From assembly GCA_043800905.1 (NCBI GenBank), contig JAZDMO010000007.1:1627-65626 (forward strand): a DNA stretch of 64,000 bases, in the 5' to 3' direction. The translations under genes and the position numbers were made by a program. This stretch comes from Patescibacteria group bacterium (GTDB taxonomy: Bacteria; Patescibacteriota; Minisyncoccia; Phycocordibacterales; UBA12079). Within the stretch, counting starts at the first letter, position 1. Each line of letters opens with the position of its first letter. Below the pieces are notes generated by a model. The model saw only the letters and a program-made list of their open reading frames with translations. It did not search any database and was not told the DNA's origin. Shown here piece by piece: positions 3,786 to 41,229 of the stretch.

Positions 3786-4469
3786 ATGAGCAATAAATAT
3801 TCTATTCTCTTAAAAGATTTAAGACTTAAAAAAGGTTTAACTCAAAAGGAATTAGCTAAAAAATTAGGAATTTCTCGTCCTTCCTATATTGCTATCGAGC
3901 AAGGGAAGAGAGACATCACCCTGAATGAATTTGAAAAATTGTCAGGTGTTTTGAGTGTGTCTTTTGATGATTTTGAGAGAGGGGAATTGCCTGATTATGA
4001 AAAATATAAACAAATGATTTTAACCTTTTTGAGAATGAGTGATGGAATAACCAAAACTAAGTTAGCTAAGTTGGTGTATCTTTCTGATTTTGCTTGGTTT
4101 TATTTTAATTTAAAAAGCATGAGTGGAATGCCTTATAGGAAGATTCAATACGGTCCTGTTCCTGATGCTTACTTTAGAGCTATTGATGAATTAGAAAATA
4201 GTGGAAAAATTTTAATTAATTGTAAACAGAAAGATGATAAAGAAATGTTTATTATTTCTGAATCAGAGAGCAATAAAAACCAAAAGTTAGATTCCATTTT
4301 GAAAGATGAGGTTGATTTAATGAAAAATATTTTTAAAAAGTGGAAAAATAAAAAGACAGCAGAAATTGTTAATTTTACCCATAATCAATTGCCGTATTTA
4401 ATCGCAGAAGATGAAGAGATTATTTCTTATGGCCTTATAACTCAAGAAAATCCAGATGAAATCTATTAA
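3786..4469 (+). CDS. XRE-family HTH fused to a Panacea/DUF4065 (SocA/PanA-like) domain; antitoxin-like
   Basis: N-terminal LKKGLTQKELAKKLGISRPSYIAIEQGKRDITLNEFEKL is a Cro/C1-type HTH. The C-terminal ITKTKLAKLVYLSDFAWFY...YGPVPD resembles the DUF4065/Panacea antitoxin domain. It overlaps the next ORF by 14 bp. Confidence 0.55.
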   Translation: MSNKYSILLKDLRLKKGLTQKELAKKLGISRPSYIAIEQGKRDITLNEFEKLSGVLSVSFDDFERGELPDYEKYKQMILTFLRMSDGITKTKLAKLVYLSDFAWFYFNLKSMSGMPYRKIQYGPVPDAYFRAIDELENSGKILINCKQKDDKEMFIISESESNKNQKLDSILKDEVDLMKNIFKKWKNKKTAEIVNFTHNQLPYLIAEDEEIISYGLITQENPDEIY

Positions 4470-10917: not shown

Positions 10918-12639
10918 ATGGGTTTTACAGATATTTTAATAAAGAAAAATATCATTTCTGCTTCTCAGCTAGCAGAGTTTCAAAAAGAAGTTGACTCCTC
11001 TAAAGATTTAGAGGAAGTTTTGGTTGAAAAAAATATTTCTCGTGAAGAAATAAATAAAGCCAAAGAAGAATATTATAATCTTCCCGTTAAAGATTTAAAT
11101 GTTGATAATTTTAATTATAAGGCTTTAAAATATGTTCCAGAAAAATCCGCGGTTCATTATGAATTTATTCCTTTGGGAGTTAAGGATGGTTTTTTAGAGG
11201 TGGGTATTGTTGATCCATCTAATATTGAAGCGAGAGATGCCATTGAATTTATTTCCTCAAAAGTTAAATTGCCTTTTAAACTTTTTTTGATTTCCAAGGC
11301 TAATTTTAGAATTGCTTTAGATGGCTATAAAGGTTTGCGAGGAGAAGTTTCTCAAGCTTTAACAGAACTAGAGTTGGAACTTAACGAAGAAGAAGAAAAG
11401 ATTAGTAACGCTGTTTCTAAAATAAAAAAAGGACATTCTGATTATGATGCTACGATTACTGAAGACGCACCAGTAACTAAGATTGTGGCAACTATTTTGA
11501 GATATGCTTCTGAGGGAGAAGCTTCTGATGTTCATATTGAACCTTCGGCAGAAAAAGTTCGAGTACGTTTTCGTGTTGATGGAATTTTGGATACTCATCT
11601 AGTTTTACCAACCAAAGTTCATGGGGCGGTGGTAGCTAGAATAAAAATTTTATCTCAGATGCGTTTGGATGAAAAAAGAAAACCGCAAGATGGAAGATTT
11701 TCTGCCAAAATAGATAGTCATAAAGTTGATTTTCGTGTTTCTACTTTTCCTACTTACTATGGAGAAAAAGTAGTTATGCGTCTTCTTGAAGCGGATAAAG
11801 GAGCAGGGCGATTGGAAGAAACTGGTTTGAGTGATAGTCATTTGAAAATTATTAAAAGATGTATTCAAAGACCGCATGGTTTAATTTTAATTTCTGGTCC
11901 GACTGGTTCAGGAAAAAGTACCACTTTATATTCTATTTTGAGTGAAATTGATCGTTTAAGTAAAAATGTGTTATCTCTGGAAGATCCTGTTGAAAGAAAT
12001 GTTGAAGGGGTTAGTCAGTCACAGGTGCGAGCTGAGATTGGTTACACTTTTGCTAGTGGATTAAGAACTATTTTGCGACAAGACCCAGATGTTATCATGG
12101 TGGGAGAGATTCGAGATAAGGAAACAGCTGGTTTGGCTATTCAAGCTGCCTTAACTGGTCACTTAGTTTTTTCGACCATTCACACCAATGACGCAGTGGG
12201 GGTAATTCCTCGTTTAATTGAAATGGATGTGGATCCTTATTTGATTGCCCCAACTCTTATTTTAGCTATGGCACAAAGACTAACTCGTCGTTTGTCTGAA
12301 GGCTCTGGCAAACCTTTACCAATAGAGGGGAGTATTAAGATGATGATAGATAAGGCTTTTGAAAGTTTGCCTCAAGAATTTAGAAAAGATATTGTTTTTC
12401 CAGAAAATGTTTATGAAGCTAGTCCGACTAAAGATAACCCTACTGGATTAAAGGGGAGAATTGGTGTTTATGAGTTGATTGAAATGGATAGAGATATTGA
12501 AGAAACTATTTTAAAAAACCCAGACAGTATGGATTTGGAAACTTTAGTTCGTCAGAAAGGAATGATTACCATGAAACAAGATGCTTTGATTAAGGCTTTT
12601 AATAAAATTATCCCTTTTGAAGAAGCTAATAAACTTTAA
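10918..12639 (+). CDS. pilB: type IV pilus assembly ATPase PilB (GspE family)
   Basis: Walker A GPTGSGKSTTLYS, Asp box, His box TIHTNDAVG. The N-terminal GSPII-like domain is typical of PilB. Confidence 0.85.
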   Translation: MGFTDILIKKNIISASQLAEFQKEVDSSKDLEEVLVEKNISREEINKAKEEYYNLPVKDLNVDNFNYKALKYVPEKSAVHYEFIPLGVKDGFLEVGIVDPSNIEARDAIEFISSKVKLPFKLFLISKANFRIALDGYKGLRGEVSQALTELELELNEEEEKISNAVSKIKKGHSDYDATITEDAPVTKIVATILRYASEGEASDVHIEPSAEKVRVRFRVDGILDTHLVLPTKVHGAVVARIKILSQMRLDEKRKPQDGRFSAKIDSHKVDFRVSTFPTYYGEKVVMRLLEADKGAGRLEETGLSDSHLKIIKRCIQRPHGLILISGPTGSGKSTTLYSILSEIDRLSKNVLSLEDPVERNVEGVSQSQVRAEIGYTFASGLRTILRQDPDVIMVGEIRDKETAGLAIQAALTGHLVFSTIHTNDAVGVIPRLIEMDVDPYLIAPTLILAMAQRLTRRLSEGSGKPLPIEGSIKMMIDKAFESLPQEFRKDIVFPENVYEASPTKDNPTGLKGRIGVYELIEMDRDIEETILKNPDSMDLETLVRQKGMITMKQDALIKAFNKIIPFEEANKL

Positions 12640-12679
12640 AAATTTAGGGATCGTTTAATAAATTATGTTTCTTTTTGTG

Positions 12680-12712
12680 AAGGATTTTGCAGAGCAAAAT
12701 CCTTCCGTTTGT
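12680..12712 (+). terminator. intrinsic terminator after pilB
   Basis: Hairpin gaaggattttgc-agag-caaaatccttc followed by a T-run. Confidence 0.5.
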
Positions 12713-12754
12713 TTTATTTATTATTACTAGATTACGAAGTAATTTAGTATTCAT

Positions 12755-12843
12755 CGTCTGTCTGTTCGTCATTACGAGGAAAAAATTAAGGTTCAAAAGT
12801 TTTAAAACTTTTGAACCTTAATTTTTGACGTGGTAATCCAGAA
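12755..12843. repeat. copy of an approx. 90-bp hairpin repeat (cgtcattacgagg..aaggttcaaaagttttaaaacttttgaacctt..gacgtggtaatccag)
   Basis: Near-identical to 19029-19132. The internal hairpin differs from that copy by compensatory changes (ggttc/gaacc here, gcctc/gaggc there). Confidence 0.6.
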
Positions 12844-12859
12844 TTATATATTAAGACTT

Positions 12860-13340
12860 AATGAAAAATTAATCAGGCTGTTTTATAAAATTCTTTCTGG
12901 ATTGCTTCGTCACTCCACTGCGTTCCGTTCCTCGCAATGACGGACGACGAAAAGCAAAACGTCTCTGCGAGATCAGATTTTTTAATAAAAATCTGATCGT
13001 GGCAGTCCAGACTTGTGAAATCACGAAGTGATTTAATTAAAAAACTAAAACCTCACTCGCAAAGACGAAAAACAAAGTTTTTCGTTACGTTTTGCGTTAA
13101 GCAAAACGTCTCTGCGAGGCACGAAGCAGTCCAGTAATAAAGTGTTTTTAGGAGGAGTGAAATAATATGATACTTGTCCGCCTTGCCTGCCCCTGCACGC
13201 CGGCAGGCGGGGGTAGACAGGTTGCTTCGTAAACTCGCAATGATGAATGACGAGATGCTGGGTTGATTTATAGACTTGTAATGATAAGTGAATGGATTTT
13301 TTAAAGTAAGATCCCCCTTCCTAAATTTATTCGCCGTGGC
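12860..13340. mobile_element. composite cluster of nested GC-rich MITE-like modules filling the pilB-pilT intergenic region
   Basis: No ORF. Contains atcaggctg..ctggattgcttcg (an inverted copy of the terminus seen at 16090-16129), cctcgcaatgacg, gtctctgcgag twice, cagtccag, and ccttgcctgcccctgcacgccggcaggcggg (an inverted copy of the 58556/63797 module). Modules recur at 15894, 19029, 25482, 31203, 58337 and 63775. Confidence 0.55.
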
Positions 13341-13461
13341 GGGTGGTGGTGAATTTGCGGGTTTTCCCCAGCAAGAGAATATATTTCTTTTCTGTTTTCT
13401 TGTATAATTATAATTAAGATTTGGGTTTTAAAAAATCCAATAGCTCAATAAATTAAATTTT

Positions 13462-14520
13462 ATGGAAAATAAAACTTTATTAAATGAATTAGTCGCTGAT
13501 GTCATCAAAGAAAATGCTTCTGATATTCACTTATCTGTAAATCAAAACCCGTCTATTCGAATTCATGGGGCTCTTTTTGAACTTAAAAAATATCCCGTGG
13601 TCACTGAAGAAAATTTAATTGGAATTATTGATGAAATTTTAACTCCGTCGTTTAAAGAAAGGTTTTTAAAAGAAAAAGAAATTGATTTTTCTTATGAAAT
13701 TGCCGAAGCACGATTTAGAGGAAGTTGTTTTTTTAGCCAGAAATCTATTTGTATTAGTCTGCGATTAATTCCCAAGGTGGTGGGGACTTTGGATGAACTT
13801 AATTTGCCCCCATCTTTACTTAATTTTACAAGAAAGGAACAAGGATTTTTTTTAGTGGTTGGTCCTATGGGTCATGGTAAATCCACAACCTTAGCATCTA
13901 TGATTGATTCTATAAATAAAGAAAGAACTGAACATATTGTGACCATTGAAGACCCTGTGGAATATGTTTATCTTAAAGATAAATCTCTTATTGATCAGAG
14001 AGAGGTGGGGGTTGATACTAAAGATTTTCCTACCGCTTTGAAATCAGCTTTTAGACAGGATGCTGATGTTATTATGATTGGTGAGATGCGAGGTTTGGAA
14101 ACTATTTCAACGGCTGTCACGGCTGCAGAAACAGGACATTTGGTTTTTTCAACTTTACATACCAATAACGCAGCTCAAACCGTTGATAGGATTATTGATG
14201 CTTTTCCTGCTAATCAACAGGATCAAATTAGAGTGCAGTTAGCAGGGTCGCTTTTGGGAATTTTTTCTCAAAGATTAATTCCTAGAATTTCTGGAGGAGT
14301 AATTCCAGCCTATGAACTACTAATTAATAATAACGCTATTTCTAATTTGATTCGTGAAGGTCGTTCTTTTGAAATTCAAAATGTTATTGAAACTTCTTCT
14401 AATGAAGGTATGGTAAGTTTAAATAGGTCTTTAGCTGAATTGGTTCGCTTAGGTGAGGTTACTATGGAGAATGCTAGAAAATATTCAACTACTGAAGGTG
14501 ATTTGGATAAATTGTTTTAG
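13462..14520 (+). CDS. pilT: twitching-motility/retraction ATPase PilT
   Basis: Walker A GPMGHGKSTTLAS, His box TLHTNNAAQT. Its 352-aa size is typical of PilT, shorter than PilB. Confidence 0.85.
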   Translation: MENKTLLNELVADVIKENASDIHLSVNQNPSIRIHGALFELKKYPVVTEENLIGIIDEILTPSFKERFLKEKEIDFSYEIAEARFRGSCFFSQKSICISLRLIPKVVGTLDELNLPPSLLNFTRKEQGFFLVVGPMGHGKSTTLASMIDSINKERTEHIVTIEDPVEYVYLKDKSLIDQREVGVDTKDFPTALKSAFRQDADVIMIGEMRGLETISTAVTAAETGHLVFSTLHTNNAAQTVDRIIDAFPANQQDQIRVQLAGSLLGIFSQRLIPRISGGVIPAYELLINNNAISNLIREGRSFEIQNVIETSSNEGMVSLNRSLAELVRLGEVTMENARKYSTTEGDLDKLF

Positions 14521-14532: not shown

Positions 14533-15738
14533 ATGTTATTTAAATATAAAGTTGTTGATAATAAAGGAATAGAAAAAGAAGGAAGTATTGAAGCTACCAG
14601 CGAGGAGGTGGCTATTGCTTCTTTGCAAGATCGAGCCTATGTTATTACTTATATTGCTCCAGTTAAGAATACAAACTTTTTAAATTTTGAATTCACTTTT
14701 TTTCAAAAAGTTTCTAATAAGGATGTTGTTATGTTGTCTAAACAAATGGCAACTTTGTTTGGAGCGCAAGTTTCCGCTTTGAGAATTTTTAGACTATTGG
14801 GAGATGAATCAGAAAACCCAATGTTAAAAAGGGTTTTGAAAAAAGTGGCGGATGATATTCAAGGAGGTAATCCGATTTCTCTGGCTTTATCTAAACACCC
14901 AAAGGTTTTTTCTGAATTTTACGTCAATATGGTTAAGTCGGGTGAGGAAGCGGGAACTTTAAACGATACTTTTGCTTATTTAGCAGAGCATCTTGATAGA
15001 AATTATGACTTGGTTTCAAAAGTAAAAAATGCTTTGATTTATCCTATTTTCGTGGTGATTGTTTTTTTTGTGGTTATGGTTTTGATGTTAACTATGGTTA
15101 TTCCTAAAATTAGCTTGATTTTGTTAGACGCTGGACAGGATTTACCTTTTCTTACTAGGGTAGTTATCGGAATTAGTAATTTTTTTGTTAATTACGGTAT
15201 TTTTTTGTTAGTGGCAGTTATCGTTGGTATTTTTATGTTTATTCGTTTTTCCAGAACTCAAGCGGGGAAAATGTCCATCGGTCGTTTTTCTCTAGCCGTT
15301 CCTTATATAGGAGACTTGTATAAAAAAATGTATTTAGCAAGAATTGCTGGAAATATGCAAACCATGTTGGCGAGCGGGGTTTCTATTGTTAAAGCTGTAG
15401 AAACCACGGCTGATGTAGTCGATAGTGTTATTTATCGTGAAATTTTGGAAAAAGCTGCTCAATCAATTAAAACAGGAATTTCTGTTTCTGGAGCTTTGAG
15501 TGGTTATGATGAGGTTCCTAATATCATGGTGCAAATGATTAAGATTGGAGAGGAAACAGGAGAATTAAGTAATATTTTAAGTACTCTTTCTCGTTTCTAT
15601 GAAAGAGAAGTTAACGGAGCGGTTGATATGTTAGTTGGAATGATTGAACCAGCGATGATTGTTTTTCTTGGCTTGGGAGTAGGGGGATTGATGGCAGCAG
15701 TGTTGATGCCAATTTACAATATCTCTTCAGCGATTTAA
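14533..15738 (+). CDS. pilC: type IV pilus inner-membrane platform protein PilC (GspF family)
   Basis: Two GspF-like repeats with TM segments. Approx. 400 aa, directly downstream of pilT. Confidence 0.8.
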   Translation: MLFKYKVVDNKGIEKEGSIEATSEEVAIASLQDRAYVITYIAPVKNTNFLNFEFTFFQKVSNKDVVMLSKQMATLFGAQVSALRIFRLLGDESENPMLKRVLKKVADDIQGGNPISLALSKHPKVFSEFYVNMVKSGEEAGTLNDTFAYLAEHLDRNYDLVSKVKNALIYPIFVVIVFFVVMVLMLTMVIPKISLILLDAGQDLPFLTRVVIGISNFFVNYGIFLLVAVIVGIFMFIRFSRTQAGKMSIGRFSLAVPYIGDLYKKMYLARIAGNMQTMLASGVSIVKAVETTADVVDSVIYREILEKAAQSIKTGISVSGALSGYDEVPNIMVQMIKIGEETGELSNILSTLSRFYEREVNGAVDMLVGMIEPAMIVFLGLGVGGLMAAVLMPIYNISSAI

Positions 15739-15800: not shown

Positions 15801-16429
15801 ATGACCTATAATTTAGAGGAAAGAACCGCTAAATACTCTGAAAATGTTATTTCTTTGATTAAAAGTGTCAAAATAAGGCTTAATGAAAAAAATATCAGGC
15901 TGAAAATGATAAACTAGCTAGTCTTAATATTATTTAAAATGATTTTTAATTAAAAACTTAAATATTTAAATTATAAAGAATTTAATTGTTTTAAAAATTT
16001 CTAGACTGCTTCGCAAGCTCGCAGAGACGAATGATTTCATCGTCCATTCGTTATTGCGAGGAATAAGATGCAGAGAAACAGAATCTTATGACGAAGCAAT
16101 CCAGAAAGAATTTCATAAAATAGCCTGATTAATTTACTATTAAGCTCAAAATAACATTGTTAAACAAAAACATAGTTGAACAATTATCAAAATCAGCCAC
16201 AAGTATCGGGGTTAACTATCATGAAACGAATAACGCTAGTTCTAAGAAAGATTTTATAAATAAGATTTATTTTTGTAAAAAAGAGGCTAACGAAACAAGA
16301 TATTGGTTAGATTTATTAAATAAAAATGAAATAAAGTTTACAGAAGATATTGGTTTATTGAAAAAAGAGAATCAAGAACTAGTCATGATTTTCCAGAAAA
16401 TAATCAATACTTCAAACAACAAACATTGA
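15801..16429 (+). pseudogene. four-helix-bundle protein (23S-rRNA-IVS-protein family) gene, split into an N-fragment (15801-15920) and a C-fragment (16157-16429) by an inserted repeat element
   Basis: The N-fragment translation MTYNLEERTAKYSENVISLIKSVKIRLNEKNI... matches the family N-terminus and ends at a stop inside the inserted element. The C-fragment QLSKSATSIGVNYHETNNASSKKDFINKIYFCKKEANETRYWLDLL matches the family C-terminal half. Confidence 0.5.
15894..16129. mobile_element. 236-bp MITE-like element with 8-bp terminal inverted repeats (atcaggct/agcctgat), inserted into the four-helix-bundle gene
   Basis: Termini atcaggct (15894) and agcctgat (16122). Inside are ctcgcagagacg, cgttattgcgagg and gacgaagcaatccag modules. 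The same terminus plus adjoining approx. 35 bp occurs inverted at 12872-12906. Confidence 0.5.
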
Positions 16430-16574
16430 AAATTGAGAATTGTAAACTGAAAATTGTTTTGATTTATCCCCAGAAAGACTTTCTTTTCTTTGCTTTTTGG
16501 GAGTATAATCAAATAAACGCAAATTATATTTGTTATTAATTATTAGTTATTAATTTAATATTATTAAAAATAAT

Positions 16575-17069
16575 ATGAAGAAATTTATGAAAAAGGATAC
16601 AAAAGGTTTTTCTCTTATCGAACTTTTGATTGTGGTTGCGATCATGGGAATTCTATCCGCCGTTGTTTTAAGTTCTTTGGGAACTGCTCGACAAAAAGCG
16701 AGAGATGCTAGAAGAATTTCAGACGTAAAGGATGCCGCTAAGATTTTAGTTATTGCTTCTGATGTGGGAGGAATAAATATTTCAGGTTGTACCACCGCTA
16801 ACGTAGCTTTGAATACTTGTGGAGATGGAACTGATCAATTTATGGATTTAAGAAGTTATTCTGACCCATCAACAGCAACAGCTGTTTGTAGCGGTACAAC
16901 AACTGAAGGTCCTTGTGAATATGGTATTGCAAATATAGATGGAGACGCAAGAGCAACTACAGAAGATTACCAAATTTGTTTTTATCTTGAATATGGAGCA
17001 GGAGATCTTTCTTCTGGTTTAAATTCAGTTGTGGGTCCAATTGGAAACTTGGTAGCTGGTTGTAATTAA
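16575..17069 (+). CDS. type IV (major) pilin, paralog A
   Basis: Class III signal KKDTKG|FSLIELLIVVAIMGILSAVV with Glu at +5. Cys-rich C-terminal domain. The 5' flank and both ends are nearly identical to the gene at 18408. Confidence 0.75.
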   Translation: MKKFMKKDTKGFSLIELLIVVAIMGILSAVVLSSLGTARQKARDARRISDVKDAAKILVIASDVGGINISGCTTANVALNTCGDGTDQFMDLRSYSDPSTATAVCSGTTTEGPCEYGIANIDGDARATTEDYQICFYLEYGAGDLSSGLNSVVGPIGNLVAGCN

Positions 17070-17077
17070 TCTAAATT

Positions 17078-17500
17078 TTGATGATGTTTAATAAACAAAA
17101 TCAAATTGAAAAAGTAGAAACTCTGGGATGTTTAAAAACATCTCGGGGTTTTTCTTTGGTGGAATTGTTAGTATCTATTGCGATCATTGGTATTTTATCT
17201 TCCATTGTTTTAGTTTCTTTAGGAAGTGCTAGAGAAAAGGCCCGTTTAAGTAGAGTTCAAAGTCAAATGACCGCCTTACATCCTCATTTAATAATGTGTA
17301 TTAATGATGGAGTTTCTGTTGACTTTTCTTCTTCTGCTCCTACAGTTGGGGCATCTTTATGTTCTAGTACTAATGTTAATTTTCCAGAATTACCAGCGGG
17401 ATGGTCTTATGTTGTTAGTCCGGTTGGAAGTTATAGGGCTTCAGGAGAAGGGTATCAGGTTAATTGTACAGAAACTGGTTGTGTAACAACTACCCCTTAA
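17078..17500 (+). CDS. type IV pilin-like protein
   Basis: The prepilin motif SRG|FSLVELLVSIAIIGILSSIVLVSL lies after an approx. 20-aa leader. 140 aa. Confidence 0.6.
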   Translation: MMMFNKQNQIEKVETLGCLKTSRGFSLVELLVSIAIIGILSSIVLVSLGSAREKARLSRVQSQMTALHPHLIMCINDGVSVDFSSSAPTVGASLCSSTNVNFPELPAGWSYVVSPVGSYRASGEGYQVNCTETGCVTTTP

Positions 17501-18198
17501 TTATGTTTTTTAATTTTATAAAAAAAGAAAAGCAAGGTTTTCTAGAATATCAGACGGGGTTTACCCCATCAGAAATTTTTATGAAGATATTTGGTGATAT
17601 AAAGAAAAAAATAAGCAGTTTTTTAAAAAATGAAAAGCAAGGTTTTCTAGAATATCAGACGGGGTTTACCCCGTCAGGAATTTTTAATAGTTTGTTATCT
17701 ATAATAAGAAACAAAATGAAAAAAAATCTTTTTAATAAAAAACAAGATTCTTTGAAATTCCAATCGGGGTTTACTTTAACTGAACTTTTGGTGGCTATCG
17801 CGATTATTGGAATTTTATCTTCCATTGTTTTAACTTCAATGAGTGGGGCGAGAGAAAGGGCTAAGGATGGAAAAAGAATTTCTGATATTAAACAAATTCA
17901 GTTAGCTTTAGAATTATATTACGATGTAAATTCTGCTTATCCTGTAGATAATGGTTCTCAAAATATTTTGTATAACGATCCTAAACCTTTAACTAATTTT
18001 TTAAAAATTTCTCAAGACCCCGATGGAACTAATTACCATTATTGGAGTACGGGACAAGATTATCACCTAGGAGCTGTCTTACAACAAACAAATAATGCTT
18101 TAGATGACGACGATGATGCTACTGGTGGTTTTGAAGGTTCTAGTTCTGATTGTGGTTCTGTGACCGGAACAGATTTTTGTTACGATGTAACTCCTTAA
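17464..18198 (+). CDS. type IV pilin preceded by two tandem degenerate prepilin-leader cassettes; the functional start is probably the ATG at 17716
   Basis: The ORF contains two copies of an approx. 107-bp unit encoding KEKQGFLEYQTGFTPSEIF (17527-17580 and 17633-17687). These are followed by a canonical prepilin MKKNLFNKKQDSLKFQSG|FTLTELLVAIAIIGILSSIVL. Confidence 0.6.
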   Translation: MYRNWLCNNYPLIMFFNFIKKEKQGFLEYQTGFTPSEIFMKIFGDIKKKISSFLKNEKQGFLEYQTGFTPSGIFNSLLSIIRNKMKKNLFNKKQDSLKFQSGFTLTELLVAIAIIGILSSIVLTSMSGARERAKDGKRISDIKQIQLALELYYDVNSAYPVDNGSQNILYNDPKPLTNFLKISQDPDGTNYHYWSTGQDYHLGAVLQQTNNALDDDDDATGGFEGSSSDCGSVTGTDFCYDVTP

Positions 18199-18246: not shown

Positions 18247-18407
18247 AGAGTTATAAAAAGTAATCATTGTTTTGTTTAATTATTAATTATATTATTTAAA
18301 TGGGATAATTTTTAATCCTTTTAATTGAAGGTATTGTTTAATCAAATAGACACAAATTACATTTGTTATTAATTATTAGTTATTAATTTAATATTATTAA
18401 AAATAAG

Positions 18408-18917
18408 ATGAAGAAATTTATGAAAAAGGATATAAAAGGTTTTTCCCTTATTGAACTTTTGATTGTGGTTGCAATCATGGGAATTCTATCTGCTGTTGTT
18501 TTGAGTTCTCTAGGAACCGCTCGTCAAAAAGCAAGAGACGCTAGAAGAATTTCAGACGTAAAGGATGCCGCTAAGATTTTAGTTATTGCTTCTGATGTGG
18601 GAGGGGTGAGCATCTCAGGTTGTGGTTCTCCTGATGTCGCCTTAAAAACTTGTGGAGACCCTGATATTGAAAATGATCCTTTTATGGATTTAAGAAGTTA
18701 TTCTGACCCTTCTGTTTCTGAAGAAGTTTGTTCAAGTGGAAGAATTATTGCCGACGGTCCCTGTGAGTACGGAATATCTGATATGACTGGTGATGAAGCG
18801 CCCACCACAGAAGATTACCAAATCTGTTTTTTCCTTGAATATGGAGCGGGAGATCTTTCCGCTGGCCTAAATTCTGTTGTGGGTCCAATTGGAAACTTGG
18901 TAGCTGGTTGTAACTAA
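18408..18917 (+). CDS. type IV (major) pilin, paralog B
   Basis: The first approx. 60 aa and last approx. 35 aa are nearly identical to the gene at 16575. The central approx. 70 aa diverge. 78 bp of upstream sequence is conserved with 16497-16574. Confidence 0.75.
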   Translation: MKKFMKKDIKGFSLIELLIVVAIMGILSAVVLSSLGTARQKARDARRISDVKDAAKILVIASDVGGVSISGCGSPDVALKTCGDPDIENDPFMDLRSYSDPSVSEEVCSSGRIIADGPCEYGISDMTGDEAPTTEDYQICFFLEYGAGDLSAGLNSVVGPIGNLVAGCN

Positions 18918-18984
18918 ATTAATTTTTTAAGAAATTTAAGGTTTTTAATAACATAAATAATTATTATTTTCTTCTATTATTTAC

Positions 18985-19028: not shown

Positions 19029-19132
19029 CTCGCAATGACGGTCCGCTTAGGGCGGACCGTCATTGCGAGGAAAAAATTAAGCCTCAAAAGTTTTAAAACT
19101 TTTGAGGCTTAATTTTTGACGTGGCAATCCAG
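19029..19132. repeat. palindromic repeat element (ctcgcaatgacggtccgc..gcggaccgtcattgcgagg + aagcctcaaaagttttaaaacttttgaggctt + gacgtggcaatccag)
   Basis: Two perfect hairpins in series. Same family as 12755-12843 and 31203-31302. Confidence 0.6.
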
Positions 19133-19225: not shown

Positions 19226-20050
19226 ATGGAAAAATACCTACTTTATTTTTTTGTTTTTGTTTTGGGAACTATTATTGGTTCTTTTTTGAATGTAGTGATT
19301 TTACGTTTTAAAAAAAATTCTTTAAATGGAAGTTCTTCTTGTCCCCGATGTAAAAAAAATTTAAGATGGTTTGAATTGATTCCAGTTTTAAGCTTCCTTT
19401 TTTTGAAGGGCAGATGTCGCTATTGTCAAAAGAAAATTTCTTGGCAGTATCCTTTAGTAGAAATAGCAACAGGATTATTATTTTTATTTTCTTTTATTTT
19501 TTCCGCCCAAGGCGGATCCGCCTTGGGCGGACAATTTTTCATTAACCTTATTATTTTATGGGTTGTTTTTAGTTTATTGGTAGTAATTTTTGTTTATGAT
19601 TTATACCATAAAATTATTCCTAATATTTTTGTATATCTTTTTATATTATTTTCTTTTTTAAAAGTCATCATAACTTTTCAAAATTTTTCTTTCGGGGCTG
19701 ATATTTGGGCGGGGTTTTTAGTCTCTTTTCCTTTTGCTTTTTTATGGTTTGTTTCAGGAGGAAGGTGGCTTGGTTTTGGAGATGTAAAATTAGCCTTAGG
19801 TATTGGTTGGTTTTTAGGTTTAGTTCAGGGTTCTACTGCAGTTATTTTAGCTGTTTGGATGGGAGCCTTGGTTGGTTTGATTTTGGTTGGTTTAACAAAG
19901 TTATCCGAAAAACATAGATTGTTTTTTAGGCTTAATAATTTTACAATTAAAAGTGAATTACCTTTTGCCCCCTTTTTAATATTAGGTATTGTGATCACTT
20001 TTTTCTTTGACTTAGATGTTTGGGGCTTGGGAGCTTTGCTTCATGGTTAA
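19226..20050 (+). CDS. pilD: prepilin peptidase PilD (A24 family) carrying an in-frame palindromic insertion
   Basis: N-terminal zinc-ribbon CPRC...CRYC, a polytopic membrane domain, and the C-terminal GFGDVKL catalytic Asp region. 19503-19530 is the perfect palindrome ccgcccaaggcggatccgccttgggcgg, which encodes SAQGGSALGGQ in frame. Confidence 0.8.
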   Translation: MEKYLLYFFVFVLGTIIGSFLNVVILRFKKNSLNGSSSCPRCKKNLRWFELIPVLSFLFLKGRCRYCQKKISWQYPLVEIATGLLFLFSFIFSAQGGSALGGQFFINLIILWVVFSLLVVIFVYDLYHKIIPNIFVYLFILFSFLKVIITFQNFSFGADIWAGFLVSFPFAFLWFVSGGRWLGFGDVKLALGIGWFLGLVQGSTAVILAVWMGALVGLILVGLTKLSEKHRLFFRLNNFTIKSELPFAPFLILGIVITFFFDLDVWGLGALLHG

Positions 20051-20651: not shown

Positions 20652-21371
20652 ATGAAAATATTAAAACAAAAATTAAAAAGAATTAATTCTCTAGAATATC
20701 AGATGGGGTTTATCCTGTCAGTAATTTTTAAAAATATGATTAATTTTTTAAAAAACAAAACGACTAAAATATTCAAAGATAAAAAAGAGGGTTCTTTGAA
20801 ATTTCAAACAGGGTTTACATTGGTGGAAATGATTACAGCTGTAGCAATTTTTGCTTTGGTGATGGTTGTGGCTATGGGTTCTTTATTGAATGTCCTATCT
20901 GCTAATAGACAAAGCCAAGCAATTCAAACCGCAGTGAATAACCTTAATCTTGCAATGGAAACCATGTCTCGTGAGATTAGAACAGGTTACAATTATCATT
21001 GTGGTTCCTGTTTTGGGTCAGATTGTACTACTGATAATGACTGCCCCGCAGGTGATTCTTCTATTGCCTTTGAACCTTATAATGGGAATCCCTCTTCTTA
21101 TAGTGATCAAGTAATTTTTATGTTTGATCAGGATAATCAACAGATTCTAAAATCGACTAACAACGGAGATGATTATTTAGGATTAACTTCTCCTGAATTA
21201 CATGTGGAAGATTTGACTTTTATTGTAGTCGGTTCGGATCCTAGTGATACTAGACATCCTAAGGTCTTAATTACCGCTAGCGGTTATGTTCAAAGCGATT
21301 CTAATACTCAAACTTCTTTTAACTTACAAACAACAGTTTCTCAAAGGTTAATTGATTTTGATTTATGGTAA
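20652..21371 (+). CDS. pseudopilin with one upstream degenerate leader cassette; probable true start at the ATG at 20736
   Basis: Upstream cassette NSLEYQMGFILSVIF, then MINFLKNKTTKIFKDKKEGSLKFQTG|FTLVEMITAVAIFALVMVV. Confidence 0.55.
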   Translation: MKILKQKLKRINSLEYQMGFILSVIFKNMINFLKNKTTKIFKDKKEGSLKFQTGFTLVEMITAVAIFALVMVVAMGSLLNVLSANRQSQAIQTAVNNLNLAMETMSREIRTGYNYHCGSCFGSDCTTDNDCPAGDSSIAFEPYNGNPSSYSDQVIFMFDQDNQQILKSTNNGDDYLGLTSPELHVEDLTFIVVGSDPSDTRHPKVLITASGYVQSDSNTQTSFNLQTTVSQRLIDFDLW

Positions 21372-22219
21372 AAATAATGAATTTAAAAAATAAAAAACAA
21401 GATTCTTTGAAATTCCAATCGGGGTTTACCCCGTCAGAAATTTTTAGTAGTTTGCTATCTATAATAAGAAACAAAATGAAAAAAAATCTTTTTAATAAAA
21501 AACAAGATTCTTTGAAATATCAGACGGGGTTTACCCCATCAGAAATTTTTATAAAGATATTTGGTAATATAAAGAAAAAAATAAGCAGGTTTTTAAAAAA
21601 TGAAAAGCAAGGTTTTGTAGAATATCAGACGGGGTTTACCCTGTCAGTAATTTTTAAAAATATGATTAATTTTTTAAAAAACAAAACGACTAAAATATTC
21701 AAAGATAAAAAAGTGGGTTCTTTGAAATTTCAAACAGGGTTTACCCTGATAGAAACTTTTGTGGCTGTTACGGTTTTGTTGATTGCCATCACCGGTCCTT
21801 TGTATTTAGTAGCAAAAGGTTTGTCAGTTTCTAAATCTGCTAAAAATCAGGTGACAGCTATGTATTTGGCTCAAGAAGCTGTTGAATATATTCGAAATAT
21901 TCGAGATGAAAATATTTTAAAAGGTCAGGATTGGCTGACTGGTTTAGATTATTGTTTAAATGGTAGTAAGTGTGCTATTGATTCGCCTCAAGAAGAAATC
22001 CTCTTGTGTTCGGGAGTTTGTAATTTTTTGAAATATGATGAAGATAAATATCTTTATACCTATTCCAGCGGGACAGCTAGTCCTTTTCGTCGAGAAATTA
22101 GTCTTTTACCTATTGGCAACACTGGGACAGAGGTAGAAATTTTAGTTGATATGTATTGGAATGATGGACCAAATCAAAAAGATTTTGAGGTTAGAGAACA
22201 TTTGTTGAATTGGCAATAA
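21365..22219 (+). CDS. pseudopilin whose 5' region is a mosaic of four prepilin-leader cassettes
   Basis: Encoded cassettes: KKQDSLKFQSGFTPSEIF, KKQDSLKYQTGFTPSEIF, KQGFVEYQTGFTLSVIF, and finally VGSLKFQTG|FTLIETFVAVTVLLIAITG. DNA blocks are near-identical to 17583-17680, 17700-17760 and 20736-20820. Confidence 0.55.
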   Translation: MVKIMNLKNKKQDSLKFQSGFTPSEIFSSLLSIIRNKMKKNLFNKKQDSLKYQTGFTPSEIFIKIFGNIKKKISRFLKNEKQGFVEYQTGFTLSVIFKNMINFLKNKTTKIFKDKKVGSLKFQTGFTLIETFVAVTVLLIAITGPLYLVAKGLSVSKSAKNQVTAMYLAQEAVEYIRNIRDENILKGQDWLTGLDYCLNGSKCAIDSPQEEILLCSGVCNFLKYDEDKYLYTYSSGTASPFRREISLLPIGNTGTEVEILVDMYWNDGPNQKDFEVREHLLNWQ

Positions 22220-25465: not shown

Positions 25466-25481
25466 CATATTTTTCAAATGT

Positions 25482-25618
25482 TGGATTGCCACGATTAAAT
25501 TTTTATTAAAAAATTTAATCTCGCAAAGACGGATTTTGCAAAGCAAAATTCGTTAGGAAAATCAAAGATTTTCGTCTTTGCGAGGAGTGAAGTGAAACGG
25601 AACGACGAAGCAATCCAG
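25482..25618. repeat. MITE-like element with ctggattgcc / gcaatccag ends between gatC and gatA
   Basis: Termini ggattgcc (25483-25490) and gcaatccag (25610-25618). Interior palindrome ctcgcaaagacg...cgtctttgcgag. The tracked gatA ORF start at 25592 lies inside it, so the real start is probably downstream. Confidence 0.55.
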
Positions 25619-29610: not shown

Positions 29611-29630
29611 CCTGCCTGCCGGCAGGCAGG
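29611..29630. repeat. 20-bp perfect palindrome cctgcctgccggcaggcagg
   Basis: The same 20-mer occurs at 37292-37311 (inside a CDS) and 58439-58458. Partial copies at 13185 and 63945. Confidence 0.7.
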
Positions 29631-31202: not shown

Positions 31203-31302
31203 GTGACGGTCGCCGAAGGCGACCGTCATTGCGAAATATTTTTAGAGAATTTTTTTGAAAAAATTTTTCAAAAAAATTCTCTAAAAATATTGTGGCAATC
31301 CA
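31203..31302. repeat. palindromic repeat element (gtgacggtcgccgaaggcgaccgtcattgcg + long AT palindrome + gtggcaatccag)
   Basis: gacggtcgccgaaggcgaccgtc hairpin; tagagaatttttttgaaaaaatttttcaaaaaaattctcta palindrome; family terminus gcaatccag. Confidence 0.55.
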
Positions 31303-31404
31303 GAAAAAACTCTTAAATTTTAAACGGCTCAACCTGTTGAGCCGTTTAACAAGGCTATATTGCTTGTTATTTTATGAAAGAAAGTTATTTTTAAAAATTC
31401 ACAC

Positions 31405-31440
31405 TAATGTTGGTTTAACATTGGTGTGTTGTGTTATAAT
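31405..31440 (+). promoter_or_regulatory. candidate sigma70-type promoter with extended -10 (TGtTATAAT) for the ATPase gene
   Basis: ttggtg (31411-31416) ...18 bp... tgttataat (31432-31440). This lies inside the 5' end of the tracked ORF, so the real start codon is probably downstream (possibly GTG 31450, leaderless). Confidence 0.3.
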
Positions 31441-36753: not shown

Positions 36754-37859
36754 AAAATATTTTAATTACAACTGGGGTTTATCCTCCAGAAATAGGTGGT
36801 CCTGCGACTTATTCTAAGTTACTTTTTGATGAATTGCCTAAACGAGGCTATGAAGTAGAAGTTTTGCCTTTTAATGAAGTCCGCCATTTACCAAAAGGGA
36901 TTCGTCATATTGTCTATTTTTTTAAAATTTTAAAAAAGGCTAAGGGTGTTGATATTATTTATGCCCAAGATCCAGTTAGTGTTGGTTTCCCTTCAATGTT
37001 GATGGCTAGAATTTTAAACAAAAGATTTTTTGTGAGAATTGCTGGTGATTATGCTTGGGAACAGGGAGTTCAGAGATTTGGGATTACGGAAGATTTAGAT
37101 TCTTTTGCTGAAAAAGAAAAAGGTTATAATTTTTTTGTAAAAATATTTAAAACAATTCAAACTTGGGTGGCTGGAGATGCTGAAAATGTCATTGTCCCTA
37201 GTTATTATTTTAAAGGAATTATTGAAAAATGGGGAATAGATTCTGAAAAAATAAAGGTAATTTACAACGGAATTAGATTAAACGAGTCAAACCTGCCTGC
37301 CGGCAGGCAGGAGTCGAAAGTCCATAATGTCGAAGGGAAGGTTTTGTTGTCAGTGGGGAGATTGGTTCCATGGAAAGGTTTTAAAGTTTTAATTGAATGT
37401 ATACCAGAGCTTTTGAAAGAAATTCCGAATTTAAAATTAAAAATTGTGGGAAGTGGTCCGCAAAAAGAAGAATTAGAAAATTTAATTAATGAATTGGATT
37501 TAAACGAAAGTGTGGTTTTGGCAGGGCAATTATCTAGAGAGGAATTGTTGGAAGAAAAGAAAAGGGCTGATATTTTTGTTTTTAATACTAATTGGGAATC
37601 TTTTTCTTTTGATACTGTGGAAGCCATGTCTTTGGGTTTGCCTGTGATTGCAACAGAAGTGGGGCCTTTGCCTGAATTGATAGAAAATGGAAAAGAAGGA
37701 ATTTTAGTTGAACCGAATAATAAAGACCAGATTATAGAATCGATTCTGTTTGTTCTAAAAAATAATAAATTTAGAGAAAAAATTATTAAAAATGCGAGAT
37801 TAAAAGTTCAGCGATTTTCTATTGAAAATACTTTGGATGAATTAGAAAAAGTTCTTTAA
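36750..37859 (+). CDS. glycosyltransferase family 4 carrying an in-frame copy of the 20-bp palindrome
   Basis: GT4 C-domain SFDTVEAMSLGLPVIATEVGPLPELI. 37292-37311 cctgcctgccggcaggcagg is translated as LPAGRQ in the interdomain region. Confidence 0.7.
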   Translation: MKNILITTGVYPPEIGGPATYSKLLFDELPKRGYEVEVLPFNEVRHLPKGIRHIVYFFKILKKAKGVDIIYAQDPVSVGFPSMLMARILNKRFFVRIAGDYAWEQGVQRFGITEDLDSFAEKEKGYNFFVKIFKTIQTWVAGDAENVIVPSYYFKGIIEKWGIDSEKIKVIYNGIRLNESNLPAGRQESKVHNVEGKVLLSVGRLVPWKGFKVLIECIPELLKEIPNLKLKIVGSGPQKEELENLINELDLNESVVLAGQLSREELLEEKKRADIFVFNTNWESFSFDTVEAMSLGLPVIATEVGPLPELIENGKEGILVEPNNKDQIIESILFVLKNNKFREKIIKNARLKVQRFSIENTLDELEKVL

Positions 37860-41225: not shown

Positions 41226-41229
41226 AATA

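Follow-up and report, generated by a model that had tools for sequence, protein, structure and literature searches.

Units related to CGTC-tagged REPs, small GC-rich palindromes and an IS256-derived MITE form mosaics in a 64-kb stretch of a Patescibacteria genome

The repeats described here are scattered over a 64-kb stretch of DNA from a Patescibacteria (CPR) genome, called the window throughout, whose ~65 ORFs include pilB, pilT, pilD, gatC, gatA and the genes for a methylase, a GT4 glycosyltransferase and a PF05635 protein. A preliminary description had listed eleven loci with shared modules, and all eleven carry the motifs far above the level of shuffled sequence. With up to two mismatches CTCGCAATGACG has 20 matches against 1.22±1.15 expected, a number reached in none of 100 dinucleotide-preserving shuffles, while GCAATCCAG with at most one mismatch has 18 against 7.3±2.5 in shuffles of the same kind. 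The palindrome CCTGCCTGCCGGCAGGCAGG (PAL20) is present in three exact and three near copies, compared to none in shuffles. A self-repeat search of the window recovered longer shared blocks in both directions (direct families D8, D12, D13, D16 and D19; inverted pairs I1–I5, I7, I8, I10 and I12). The repeats are made up of three mixed layers: CGTC units, small GC-rich palindromes and one 269-bp MITE derived from the IS256 family (Table 1).

A catalogue of heads and tails gives ~20 CGTC units, ~9 on the (+) and ~11 on the (−) strand. The modules are indeed nested hairpin repeats in both orientations, as first proposed, with PAL20 inside the unit at 58434–58484 and the GC block inside those at 58535–58641 and from 63773. 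The claim that they are far more GC-rich than their surroundings holds for the cores, but the inner hairpins are AT-rich in many units; covariance-model matches in the window range from 29 to 64% GC, and the 1-kb GC content goes up only from ~0.31 to ~0.35 at the repeat loci. All intergenic repeat loci lie between co-directional genes of the + strand, GC skew is uniformly positive, and the low-GC glycosylation island at 40–57.8 kb carries no CGTC units. A CRISPR-like array was ruled out by the irregular spacing and the presence of units in both orientations. The repeats also create spurious ORFs at 58334–58636, 63664–63930 and 39042–39350. At Pfam level, no transposase, Y1_Tnp or HUH protein was found among the ~65 ORFs of the window, in agreement with the preliminary description, and searches of literature full text with the motif sequences returned unrelated primers only.

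Table 1. Repeat units, palindromes and associated features, in window positions. D and I numbers refer to the self-repeat search; R1 is a covariance model of canonical units; fold energies and z values are for DNA.
Feature	Position	Strand	Details
CGTC unit, 75 nt	12767–12841	+	head CGTCATTACGAG, apex a 46-nt perfect AT-rich palindrome, tail GTAATCCAG; basal pair A-T instead of G-C, both sides being changed; fold −22.3 kcal/mol, z = −7.1; D12, I5
IS256-type MITE-end fragment	12856–12896	+	inverted repeat CTTAATGAAAAATTAATCAGGCTG + 16 nt, joined to next unit in fixed register; aligns with window 16146–16040, L232 and L243; I1
CGTC unit, 46 nt	12897–12942	−	many tandem G·A pairs in apical helix; R1 49.8 bits, E = 3.1e-14
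CGTC unit, 51 nt, CTCTGC/GCAGTC subfamily	12960–13010	+	AT palindrome apex; z = −6.7; I4
Partial unit	13015–13067	−	head CTCGCAAAGACG + AAATCAC-GAA-GTGATTT hairpin; tail not recognisable
Minimal CGTC unit, 28 nt	13107–13134	+	R1 25.1 bits, E = 8e-6
GC block (GC-rich nested palindrome)	13172–13221	.	abuts TTGC of unit 13218–13245; I2, I3
CGTC unit, GC-block end in place of tail	13218–13245	−	R1 E = 0.2; D13
Decayed copy (GC to AT) of unit at 58485–58518	13252–13288	−	common prefix GAGATGCTGGGTTG; D13, 71%
PF05635 (23S_rRNA_IVP / four-helix-bundle) gene, split by MITE	15801–16429	+	N-terminal part 15801–15876, C-terminal part 16146–16429
MITE, 269 bp, IS256-family derivative	15877–16145	.	inverted repeats GGCTTAATGAAAAAAATATCAGGCT and GCTTAATAGTAAATTAATCAGGCT (reverse complement)
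CGTC unit within MITE	16001–16029	−	R1 E = 0.0028
CGTC unit within MITE	16049–16104	+	directly before right inverted repeat; R1 E = 1.5e-4
Heads-facing palindrome	19029–19069	.	CTCGCAATGACG-GTCCGC TTAG GGCGGAC-CGTCATTGCGAG; left partner head only; D16, I12
CGTC unit, 75 nt, sister of 12767–12841	19058–19132	+	104-nt block including the unit folds at −47.1 kcal/mol, z = −13.3; D12 (92%), I5
Perfect palindrome, 30 nt, inside pilD	19502–19531	.	encodes SAQGGSALGG, loop between two Pfam domains; D9
CGTC unit, 51 nt, sister of 12960–13010	25481–25531	−	R1 match; z = −4.5; I4
CGTC unit, 46 nt, gatC-gatA spacer	25573–25618	+	R1 38.9 bits, E = 1.6e-10; gatA probably starts at 25643
PAL20	29611–29630	.	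19 nt past methylase gene stop; flanks CATAAAAA / CATTAAAA, 7/8 positions match
GC hairpin overlapping CGTC tag, then 80-nt CGTC unit (31224–31303)	31205–31303	+	hairpin GACGGTCGCC-GAAG-GCGACCGTC; unit carries 54-nt AT palindrome; fold −40.2 kcal/mol, z = −13.0
PAL20 (37292–37311) + 7-nt flanking direct repeats	37285–37318	.	AGTCAAA / AGTCGAA; inside GT4 glycosyltransferase, in frame (NLPAGRQ) between its two Rossmann domains
CGTC unit, 46 nt	39299–39344	+	either intergenic or in doubtful 5′ extension of ORF 39121–40203; R1 E = 9.7e-8; D19
Isolated degenerate head	58337–58348	−	TTCGCAATGATA; head/tail catalogue
CGTC unit, 65 nt	58357–58421	−	40-nt hairpin apex, closed by basal ATTGC/GCAAT stem; −20.1 kcal/mol, z = −6.7
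CGTC unit with PAL20 (58439–58458)	58434–58484	−	PAL20 inserted between TTGGA and TTGCC; R1 match
Minimal CGTC unit, 29 nt	58490–58518	−	R1 30 bits, E = 1.7e-7
CGTC unit with GC block (58551–58599)	58535–58641	−	GC block nested between CTGGAT and TGCC; D8
Second copy (89%) of tail + GC-block composite	63767–63853	−	GC block 63789–63837; D8, I3
Degenerate PAL20, 3 mismatches	63932–63951	.	
CGTC unit, CTCTGC subfamily	63976–64000	+	runs into window end; catalogue, R1

The CGTC units share the plan CGTC-ATTGC-GA-(variable hairpin)-G-NN-GCAAT-CCAG, in which a basal platform, consisting of the CGTC tag, the 5-bp ATTGC/GCAAT stem, a GA/GNN internal loop and the CCAG tail, carries a variable apical helix. 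This apical helix is 5 bp long with loops of 3–4 nt; among 98 distinct units there are 53 triloops and 33 tetraloops, and apices in the window reach 54 nt. A covariance model (R1), for which only 30 distinct 36-nt units from IMG/VR viral-contig loci (median GC 65%) served as input, finds seven window units at E < 0.01, the best at 3.1e-14. Since a model of canonical units alone finds them, the window units are homologous to the canonical high-GC units. In a set of 13 distinct CPR units, 12 of them in the window and one on the metagenome contig L243, ten start with CGTC, with CGTT and TGTT as variants, and one further window unit has CATC. At three sites (19029–19069, 31205–31227 and L225 15275–15291) the tag is paired to a GACG that lies upstream, in the adjacent hairpin. 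The stem starts with A-T/T-A pairs in canonical and most window units, the first pair being broken in the CTCTGC and CTTTGC variants (pair 5-20 is unpaired in 7 of 13 cells). The CCAG tail is found in 11 of the 13 CPR units, and in all 30 canonical units, though the pattern used to collect the latter demanded it.

These features recall the CGTC-tagged REP superfamily of Di Nocera, De Gregorio and Rocco (2013, BMC Genomics 14:522; PMC3733652), which includes Neisseria dRS3 and Rickettsia RPE-4/RPE-6. There the superfamily is defined by a terminal CGTC (with TGTC and CCTC variants), a stem that nearly always begins with complementary A/T at positions 1–2, and an unpaired 3-nt CCA tail; stems are 8–9 bp and loops 4–5 nt (its Table 1), with other loop lengths in some families. 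The paper describes mostly inverted dimers with one predominant polarity, located intergenically, mainly between co-directional or convergent ORFs, with some intragenic copies and no flanking dedicated transposase, and it names hosts from five phyla, Novosphingobium aromaticivorans among the species and Patescibacteria not among the phyla. Matched to this text definition, the tag, the stem start and the tail would place our units in the superfamily. The repeats probably belong to an already described cross-phylum repeat class and not to an unknown family, and are a MITE only locally. The preliminary description had not recognised the family and had itself named a known REP family as grounds for giving up its reading; the match to CGTC-tagged REPs is of this kind.

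Further similarities to published CGTC REPs are the inverted dimers, the co-directional intergenic position, the patchy distribution, the lack of a dedicated transposase and, for some species, the mosaic clusters. There are also clear differences. In the window units the internal loop breaks the helix into two parts of 5 bp each, the apices consist of perfect AT palindromes as long as 54 nt, and the pairs mostly have the tags facing. In addition, the CTCTGC/GCAGTC subfamily is lineage-specific (it gave no matches in IMG/VR, where it served as a specificity control), and an IS256-type MITE has units physically joined to it. The canonical unit is widespread in high-GC genomes. Its 36-mer matches N. 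aromaticivorans plasmid pNL2 at 92% identity, in a tags-outward dimer 13 nt past a stop codon, and dimers in IMG/VR are tags-outward in 46 cases versus 3 tags-facing (spacer mode 18 nt), which is the opposite polarity to the five tags-facing pairs that make up most of the window dimers. Canonical high-GC dimers are bounded by CGTC/GACG only, and no target duplications were found around CGTC units or dimers. No gene recurs beside the units in 109 viral-contig loci; the search yielded only common structural genes of phages, from prophages that are related to each other. We consider it likely that the window repeats are the Patescibacteria version of the CGTC-tagged REP superfamily, that is, short non-coding hairpin DNA arranged in BIME-like mosaics in intergenic spacers. 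In this AT-rich genome the apex would have been swapped for long perfect AT palindromes, and PAL20 and the GC block would have become nested into some of the units.

One mosaic lies in the spacer between pilB and pilT, which is 822 bp long in the window versus 100–209 bp in the four closest syntenic relatives. These relatives contain 0–1 CGTC units per 21 kb, and no relative was found above 73–74% PilT identity. The spacer had been described as built almost entirely from repeats; modules are recognisable across 12767–13290, but this is only ~60% of its length, and the remainder includes a terminator-like hairpin of pilB (12679–12705) and a conserved block upstream of pilT (13362–13414). Similarly, gatC and gatA abut in the related contig L230 and are separated by 177 bp with two units in the window. 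R1 has 7 matches in the 64-kb window versus 4 in 962 kb of other Patescibacteria loci, a ~25-fold difference in density. In this lineage specifically, units have been added to spacers that are otherwise syntenic. The idea that they replaced a receiver-domain gene, which occupies the pilB-pilT gap of distant relatives, was rejected; no remnant of the gene was found in the window, and the closest relatives also lack it, so the repeats did not take its place. Decay accompanies gain, as in the copy at 13252–13288, where GC has changed to AT.

Both helices of the unit are maintained through compensated changes. Double changes occur in four of the five apical pairs (none of 500 shuffles is as high) and in three of the five basal pairs among CPR copies, where there are no one-sided changes. 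Two apical pairs are compensated between the sister units 12767 and 19058 (GGTTC/GAACC versus GCCTC/GAGGC), and two more between the sisters 12960 and 25531. In perfect palindromes template switching can be the source of such changes, so that selection is not required. Under nearest-neighbour DNA energies, long-apex units fold with z from −4.5 to about −13, and short ones (28–46 nt) fold no better than shuffles. In the apical stems of the 98 distinct units there are 350 G-C/C-G and 78 tandem G·A/A·G pairs, G·T occurs only once and A·C twice, and 39 of the 53 triloops are of the GNA type. The near-absence of G·T, the tandem G·A pairs, the GNA triloops, the use of both orientations and the non-terminator scores argue that the pairing is that of DNA rather than RNA.

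These observations bear directly on a possible cis-acting role of the units in RNA, as terminators, attenuators or 3′-end stabilisers under selection between co-directional genes. The hairpins covary, the intergenic loci all lie between co-directional + strand genes, the N. aromaticivorans dimer closely follows a stop codon, and the authors of PMC3733652 favour transcription of many REPs. Such a function is nevertheless improbable: the units are about equally frequent in both orientations relative to transcription, G·U is almost absent (1 in ~450 pairs), U-tracts are missing, and a terminator scan picks none of the units and only the ordinary pilB hairpin at 12679–12705. Moreover, the orthologous spacers of relatives work without units and decayed copies are present. 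Nor does a known structured RNA explain the distribution, an outcome that had been considered beforehand, since across the whole window only five tRNAs reach the Rfam gathering score and a permissive scan of 12650–13450 gave just sub-threshold, miRNA-like hairpin matches. Conservation of the platform to the base across phyla with a free apex, the irrelevance of orientation, and the BIME-like + − + − + − alternation of the pilB-pilT mosaic would all suit double-stranded binding sites for a host protein (gyrase, IHF and nucleoid proteins have been suggested for E. coli BIMEs), or else recombination sites. We regard this as very unlikely, because the patchy distribution even among syntenic relatives argues against a general host function, the compensated changes preserve pairing and not sequence, and there is no candidate protein.

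The element at 15877–16145 is a genuine MITE with an IS256-family parent. Its two inverted repeats agree in 18 of 24 positions, and it is flanked by an exact 9-bp target duplication, TCAAAATAA, at 15868–15876 and 16146–16154; removing the MITE and one copy of the duplication restores an in-frame 116-aa protein covering positions 10–102 of the PF05635 profile. The parent, a ~1030-bp IS256-family element, is present in the related metagenome contigs L233 and L236, with a transposase that matches NF048019 at E = 2.7e-89 (299 bits versus a cut-off of 150). Homology between MITE and parent covers ~90 nt at the left end and ~40 nt at the right end. Like IS256-family insertion sequences and their MITEs (NCBIfam NF048019, ‘variant Zn-binding type’), it combines ~25-bp inverted repeats with a 9-bp duplication; unlike the parent, which contains no CGTC unit, it has an interior of two CGTC units (16001–16029 and 16049–16104). 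The arrangement of inverted repeat, ~17 nt and unit recurs in fixed register at two places in the window and in two other metagenome contigs (L232 and L243), although the IS256 link is seen at only 2 of the 11 loci.

It might then be supposed that every module comes from a classical MITE, derived by deletion from a single insertion sequence and mobilised in trans by its transposase, as is plainly the case for 15877–16145 and could also apply to the inverted-repeat fragment at 12856–12896 with its recurrent junction to a unit. We consider this explanation unlikely. Only three copies of the inverted repeat occur in the window even at up to five mismatches, the other ~17 units have neither inverted repeats nor duplications, high-GC genomes without this repeat sequence are rich in the units, and the IS256 element itself carries no unit. 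The label MITE-like, given initially to the whole family, is therefore appropriate for 15877–16145 and unfit for most units, which have no terminal inverted repeats or target duplications. Of the link to IS200/IS605 that had been suggested there is no sign in the window. Such elements have a TnpA (Y1) transposase, subterminal hairpins and strand-specific insertion 3′ of a tetra- or pentanucleotide; the window encodes no TnpA, the only transposase tied to any copy is of IS256 type, and the ~9:11 orientation on a replichore of uniformly positive skew shows no strand bias.

PAL20 behaves differently, being a genuine insertion that comes with 7-bp duplications of its target. An alignment of pilD orthologues reveals a filled site in the relative L225, where PAL20 adds 9 aa together with an exact 7-bp duplication (TTTTCAA), giving an in-frame, stop-free insert of 20+7 = 27 nt; a different site is filled in L229, and each is empty in the other orthologues. 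Among 44 copies, 11 have at least 5/7 flank matches (z = 3.8). PAL20 was found in 35 IMG/VR loci and occurs in contigs of 38–68% GC, its copies often being embedded in tandem 7–9-mers and also found inside conserved protein and RNA genes, and a palindromic insert occupies a tRNA variable arm in L214. The 30-nt pilD palindrome is absent in L229 and present as the same insert in L230; as a specificity control it gave no IMG/VR matches. These palindromes add 7–11 residues to real proteins (PilD and the GT4 glycosyltransferase). GC palindromes have been inserted four times at the step between CTGGA and TTGC.

A perfect palindrome in very different assemblies could look technical at first sight, and one could ask whether the motifs arise by chance, from low complexity, or as artefacts of assembly or adapters. 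This can be practically dismissed given the shuffle controls for all three motifs, the copies in finished plasmids and in assemblies of independent origin (NCBI, JGI, ENA), the target duplications, the in-frame insertions in conserved genes, and the single compensated variant carried by L228, which has no IMG/VR matches compared to the 35 loci with PAL20.

Other small repeats offer partial parallels. The cyanobacterial small dispersed repeats that Elhai et al. reportedly described in 2008 are said to be 21–27 nt long, often within tandem heptamers, and located in conserved genes and RNAs. By description PAL20 is similar (~20 nt, hairpin-forming, dispersed, associated with tandem 7–9-mers), but it shows a 7-bp target duplication in ~1/4 of copies and is not confined to one phylum. 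Rickettsia palindromic elements, of which RPE-1 elements are ~100–150 bp long, likewise include in-frame palindromes, comparable to those seen here in loops and linkers (pilD, GT4) and in the tRNA variable arm of L214; unlike them, the intragenic copies in the window are PAL20 and the 30-nt palindrome and not CGTC units. With REPIN/RAYT systems and E. coli BIMEs the CGTC units share short imperfect palindromes, inverted doublets with a short spacer, alternating clusters and a tag outside the stem. The tag is CGTC, however, and not the GTAG/GTGG that lies 5′ of the hairpin in GTAG REPs, and the window contains no RAYT (Y1 HUH) gene, which in those systems is single-copy and has REPs at its flanks. 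REP/RAYT pairs are described as lineage-specific in two studies (PMC3116915; bioRxiv 10.1101/2022.05.22.493013), whereas the CGTC platform is conserved across phyla.

Returning to the CGTC-tagged REP reading, the conserved platform may be what a trans-acting enzyme recognises when it works on the folded single strand, and by analogy with RAYT on GTAG REPs the substrate would be ssDNA and not RNA. Spread within the lineage could also have proceeded via carriage on IS256 MITEs and duplication of composite blocks. Most copies would be neutral or selfish, with old copies drifting to AT. A bolder and tentative proposal is that the 36-nt CGTC platform and PAL20, both kept to the base across bacteria of 30–70% GC, are substrates of at least one widely distributed enzyme, that PAL20 is the smallest of the mobile elements that duplicate their target, that CGTC REPs hitch-hike on IS256-derived MITEs in Patescibacteria, and that the step between CTGGA and TTGC is a cleavage or joining site. 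If this were true, PAL20 would always be in frame and stop-free, because it adds 20 + 7 = 27 nt, and so would be able to settle in proteins and tRNAs.

So high a density of repeats, ~20 REP-type units together with a MITE and several mini-palindromes within 64 kb, is unexpected because CPR/Patescibacteria genomes are small and streamlined. It affects the annotation and assembly of MAGs through spurious ORFs, extra residues, a split PF05635 gene and a spacer expanded from 100–200 bp to 822 bp. The window ties CGTC REPs, a class with no known transposase, to a concrete carrier in the form of an IS256-family MITE, and for a 20-bp palindrome that is unchanged across very different genomes, sites with and without the insert are documented together with a 7-bp duplication. 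With the MITE carrier and the PAL20 filled and empty sites, the question of what moves these repeats becomes testable.

The repeats are real and modular. Every locus listed in the preliminary description contains modules, and counts lie far above expectation: CTCGCAATGACG (up to two mismatches) has 20 matches in the window against 1.2 expected, GCAATCCAG (up to one mismatch) 18 against 7.3, and PAL20, a 20-bp perfect palindrome, three exact and three near copies against none. Comparison of the window with itself also recovered longer shared blocks. Head/tail pairing yields some 20 units with the layout CGTC-ATTGC-GA-[variable]-G-NN-GCAAT-CCAG (28–107 nt), about nine on the + strand and about 11 on the - strand, which differ in their variable part (see table). 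Long-apex units fold as DNA much better than shuffles (z -4.5 to -13), and at 12960-13010, 25481-25531, 31205-31303 and 58357-58421 the hairpin is closed by the basal (A)TTGC/GCAA(T) stem; short units fold no better than shuffles. The GC-richness first ascribed to the repeats holds for their cores only, since many units have AT-rich inner hairpins, and the pilB-pilT spacer is built from repeats over ~60% of its 822 bp, for which "almost entirely" was too strong. Unit strands alternate there (+ - + - + -), an arrangement resembling that of BIMEs.

Coordinates of the repeats and associated features (window positions unless a contig is named)
Feature	Position	Remark
CGTC units, variable part almost nil	13107-13134, 58490-58518	
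CGTC units, 46-nt type	12897-12942, 25573-25618, 39299-39344	variable part a purine-rich helix with tandem G·A pairs
CGTC units, palindromic apex	units at 12767, 12960, 19058, 25481, 31224, 58357	variable part a perfect AT-rich palindrome, 26-54 nt
PAL20, exact copies	29611, 37292, 58439	CCTGCCTGCCGGCAGGCAGG
GC block	13172-13221, 58551-58599, 63789-63837	also a relative in L228
MITE	15877-16145	inverted repeats: GGCTTAATGAAAAAAATATCAGGCT (left), reverse complement of GCTTAATAGTAAATTAATCAGGCT (right)
Tandem 7-9-mer spacers	L225 11063-11175, 12382-12800, 16694-17456; L229 9800-10000; L230 12267-12544	
pilT upstream motif	13362-13414; L225 9792-10000; L228 9834-10000; L229 9800-10000; L230 9901-10000	
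Type IV pilus cluster	pilB 10918-12639; pilT 13462-14520; pilC 14533-15738; prepilin peptidase 19226-20050	also pilM/N/O and pilins

The unit is widespread outside this genome. A search of IMG/VR for the exact pattern CGTCATTGCGAG-N10-40-GCAATCCAG gave 148 matches, spread over 109 loci (median GC 65%, range 31–74%), with a modal unit length of 36 nt. These units are usually paired with an inverted copy ~18 nt further on, their CGTC tags outward (46 dimers versus 3 of opposite polarity); a target duplication was sought around the dimers and none was found. Compensated double changes affect four of the five apical pairs across 30 distinct 36-mers, a count matched by none of 500 shuffles; the basal stem had no room to vary here, since the search pattern fixed most of it. 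A covariance model built solely from these 36-mers (R1) recovers seven window units at E < 0.01 (best 3e-14). In the copies from Patescibacteria the basal stem does covary, three of five pairs carrying changes in both bases and no pair being changed in one base alone, and the sister units 12767/19058 and 12960/25531 are each two compensated apical pairs apart. Template switching can be another source of compensated changes in perfect palindromes. The canonical 36-mer of high-GC loci matches plasmids of Methylosinus, Methylocystis, Novosphingobium, Legionella, Calothrix and Halomonas, and on N. aromaticivorans pNL2 it forms a typical dimer 13 nt past a stop codon.

The family, unrecognised in the preliminary description, is of a known kind. 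According to Di Nocera, De Gregorio and Rocco (2013, PMC3733652), a CGTC-tagged REP is marked by an unpaired CGTC at one of its ends, a stem that opens with A/T pairs and a CCA tail. Such REPs are mostly inverted dimers between co-directional or convergent genes, at times intragenic, form mosaics in Neisseria and Wolbachia, and are patchily distributed over five phyla without a dedicated transposase, unlike GTAG REPs. The window units share the tag, the stem start and the tail but, taken literally, do not fit the stem of 8–9 bp and loop of 4–5 nt that the paper gives. N. aromaticivorans is a host named there, and the pNL2 dimer is, at the level of sequence, an independent link between the canonical unit and this class. 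By sequence and structure, the window repeats are CGTC-tagged REPs, in a new phylum and of unusual form.

Apical stems of 98 distinct units comprise 350 G-C/C-G pairs, 78 tandem G·A/A·G pairs, one G·T and two A·C, and 39 of 53 triloops are GNA. GNA triloops with a C-G closing pair are unusually stable DNA mini-hairpins. No CGTC unit scores in a terminator scan of the window, where the real pilB terminator-like hairpin lies at 12679-12705. That the units are functional RNA is argued against by their occurrence in both orientations beside genes all on the + strand, by the absence of G·U pairs and terminator features, and by the lack of an Rfam family for them. Pair types, loops, orientation and terminator scores hint instead that constraint acts at the DNA level. 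Protein-binding DNA sites are in turn argued against by the patchy distribution.

The window (GC ~31%) carries almost all its genes on the + strand, and its cumulative GC skew climbs over most of its length. Beyond the pilus cluster it holds ligA, gatC, gatA, five tRNAs, many glycosyltransferases and an HlyD/AcrB pair. Its PilT and a GT4 protein are 100% identical to the NCBI MAG proteins MFH0845999.1 and MFH0846022.1, respectively; the next-nearest PilT relatives reach at most 74% identity, and the best species-level genomes, Paceibacterota/Parcubacteria MAGs, 66%. We compared it with its closest syntenic relatives, L225, L228, L229 and L230 (PilT ~71–73% identical; GC 30–31%). Their pilB-pilT gaps measure 209, 167, 201 and 100 bp, respectively, versus 822 bp in the window; all four keep the TTTTTCCCCAA...TATAAT block (window 13362-13414), and they hold 0–1 CGTC units per 21 kb. 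The genes gatC and gatA abut in L230 and are separated in the window by 177 bp with two units. At E < 0.01, R1 finds seven units in the 64-kb window and four in other Patescibacteria loci totalling 962 kb. The units are thus lineage-specific additions, the relatives compared being too distant to resolve CGTC insertions to the base. Composite repeat blocks are duplicated within the window (families D8 and D13), and 13252-13288 is a copy of 58485-58518 whose GC has decayed to AT. Independent assemblies, duplications and in-frame insertions exclude an artefact.

Several further features were noted. All five syntenic genomes conserve a TTTT(T)CCCCA(A/G) motif upstream of pilT, with a TATAAT-like box after it; this is probably the promoter of pilT or an operator. 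More distant Patescibacteria (L110-L118, L124, L139, L152, L155, L156) carry a ~130-aa response-regulator receiver gene in the pilB-pilT gap; it is missing from the four closest relatives and from the window, which shows no trace of it. Pilin-like ORFs contain tandem and dispersed repeats of 105-bp period (D1, D2; 17528-17807, 20687-20851, 21288-21800), and the pilin paralogue block 16503-17091 has a duplicate at 18336-18939 (80–89% identity). Defence-type genes lie near the window start (NYN-domain protein, 1225-1536; GmrSD_N + HNH, 1679-2770; HTH + SocA/Panacea antitoxin, 3786-4469), and a VirD4/TraG-like coupling ATPase (TrwB_AAD_bind, TraG-D_C; 31426-33234) immediately follows the repeat locus 31205-31303. 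Translated repeats make up ORFs 58334-58636 (-), 63664-63930 (+) and 39042-39350 (-), of 88–102 aa and without a Pfam match, which gene callers likely annotate as spurious "hypothetical proteins". The glycosyltransferase/methyltransferase/Wzm-Wzt ABC island at 40000-57800 (GC 26–29%, partly - strand, flat GC skew) lacks CGTC and PAL20 units, which would fit its acquisition after the repeat expansion.

PAL20 is an insertion with target duplication. It occurs in 35 IMG/VR loci (GC 38–68%) and, counting near or compensated copies, four times in L225 and once each in L229 and L228; a compensated variant sequence has no IMG/VR match, and it is thus the exact sequence that is dispersed. At least five of seven flanking bases are identical left versus right in 11 of 44 distinct copies (null mean 1.9/7, z = 3.8). 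Among five aligned pilD orthologues, L225 has nine extra residues (LPAGRQVFN), its PAL20 being bracketed by an exact duplication, TTTTCAA. This site is empty in L229, which has PAL20 at another site, empty in all other orthologues aligned; the window and L230 bear a different 30-nt palindrome at the L225 site (SAQGGSALGG, window 19502-19531). Flanked by AGTCAAA and AGTCGAA, the PAL20 copy of the window GT4 gene codes for NLPAGRQ in the linker between the domains. This insert is missing from five close homologues (63–69% identity), and one homologue (P0123) shows NLLAGRQ at that position. The insertion never breaks the reading frame because 20 + 7 = 27 and no frame contains a stop. The GC block reads as PAL20 halves with a second PAL-like 20-mer between them, from which we infer an origin by nesting. 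Modules are indeed nested, as proposed. At four window places a GC palindrome sits between CTGGA and TTGC of a CGTC unit.

Similar sequences were seen elsewhere. In viral contig L214 (2239-2330), ARAGORN still calls tRNA-Met despite PAL20 in the variable arm, and two more viral contigs have tRNA-like fragments with PAL20 (L191 8616, L221 515). In the relatives, intergenic spacers are made up of tandem 7-9-mers (e.g. ATAAAGTCT), which return inverted on the far side of a central AAATTTGC-NNN-GCAAATTT hairpin. The GT4 gene has a comparable 9-mer array (encoding KVH-KVH) exactly at the position of PAL20. The 30-nt palindrome region has a look-alike (73%), degenerate and decayed towards AT, at 52386-52437 in the GT11 glycosyltransferase ORF 51902-52807 (-).

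Reading all modules as MITEs, as first proposed, is true for only two of 11 loci: within the window, the inverted-repeat sequence occurs only at the MITE and at 12856-12942. The MITE itself has inverted repeats, an exact 9-bp flanking duplication (TCAAAATAA) and an IS256 parent. It interrupts a PF05635 (four-helix-bundle) gene; excising it with one duplication copy yields a 116-aa ORF matching profile positions 10-102, versus 30-102 for the C-terminal fragment alone. A metagenome scan with the inverted-repeat pattern gave 16 loci. Complete elements of ~1030 bp lie on contigs L233 and L236; they share the ends of the MITE and contain one ORF each, of 273 aa. This ORF is a match to NCBIfam NF048019 ("IS256 family transposase, variant Zn-binding type"; E = 2.7e-89, 299 bits versus a cut-off of 150), and Pfam gives none; the window itself, as first described, has no transposase. 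The left ~90 nt of the MITE align with the left end of this insertion sequence, and at its right end a CGTC unit is separated from the inverted repeat by ~17 nt. Because this junction recurs in unchanged register at 12856-12942 and in metagenome contigs L232 and L243, some CGTC units, at the least, are transported by an IS256-derived MITE.

The repeat system is real and dense: CGTC REPs occur intermingled with a mobile palindrome of very small size and a single IS256 MITE. The invariant platform of the unit may be the recognition site for a putative trans-acting enzyme whose substrate would be the folded single strand, with an apex free to vary and open to nested palindromes. Units would spread by three routes, namely movement by this enzyme, transport as passengers of MITEs and duplication of whole blocks, and most copies would be neutral. 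The repeat class is already known; new and testable are the conservation of two tiny hairpins to the base across phyla, the 7-bp duplication made by a 20-bp element, and the MITE as a carrier of CGTC units.
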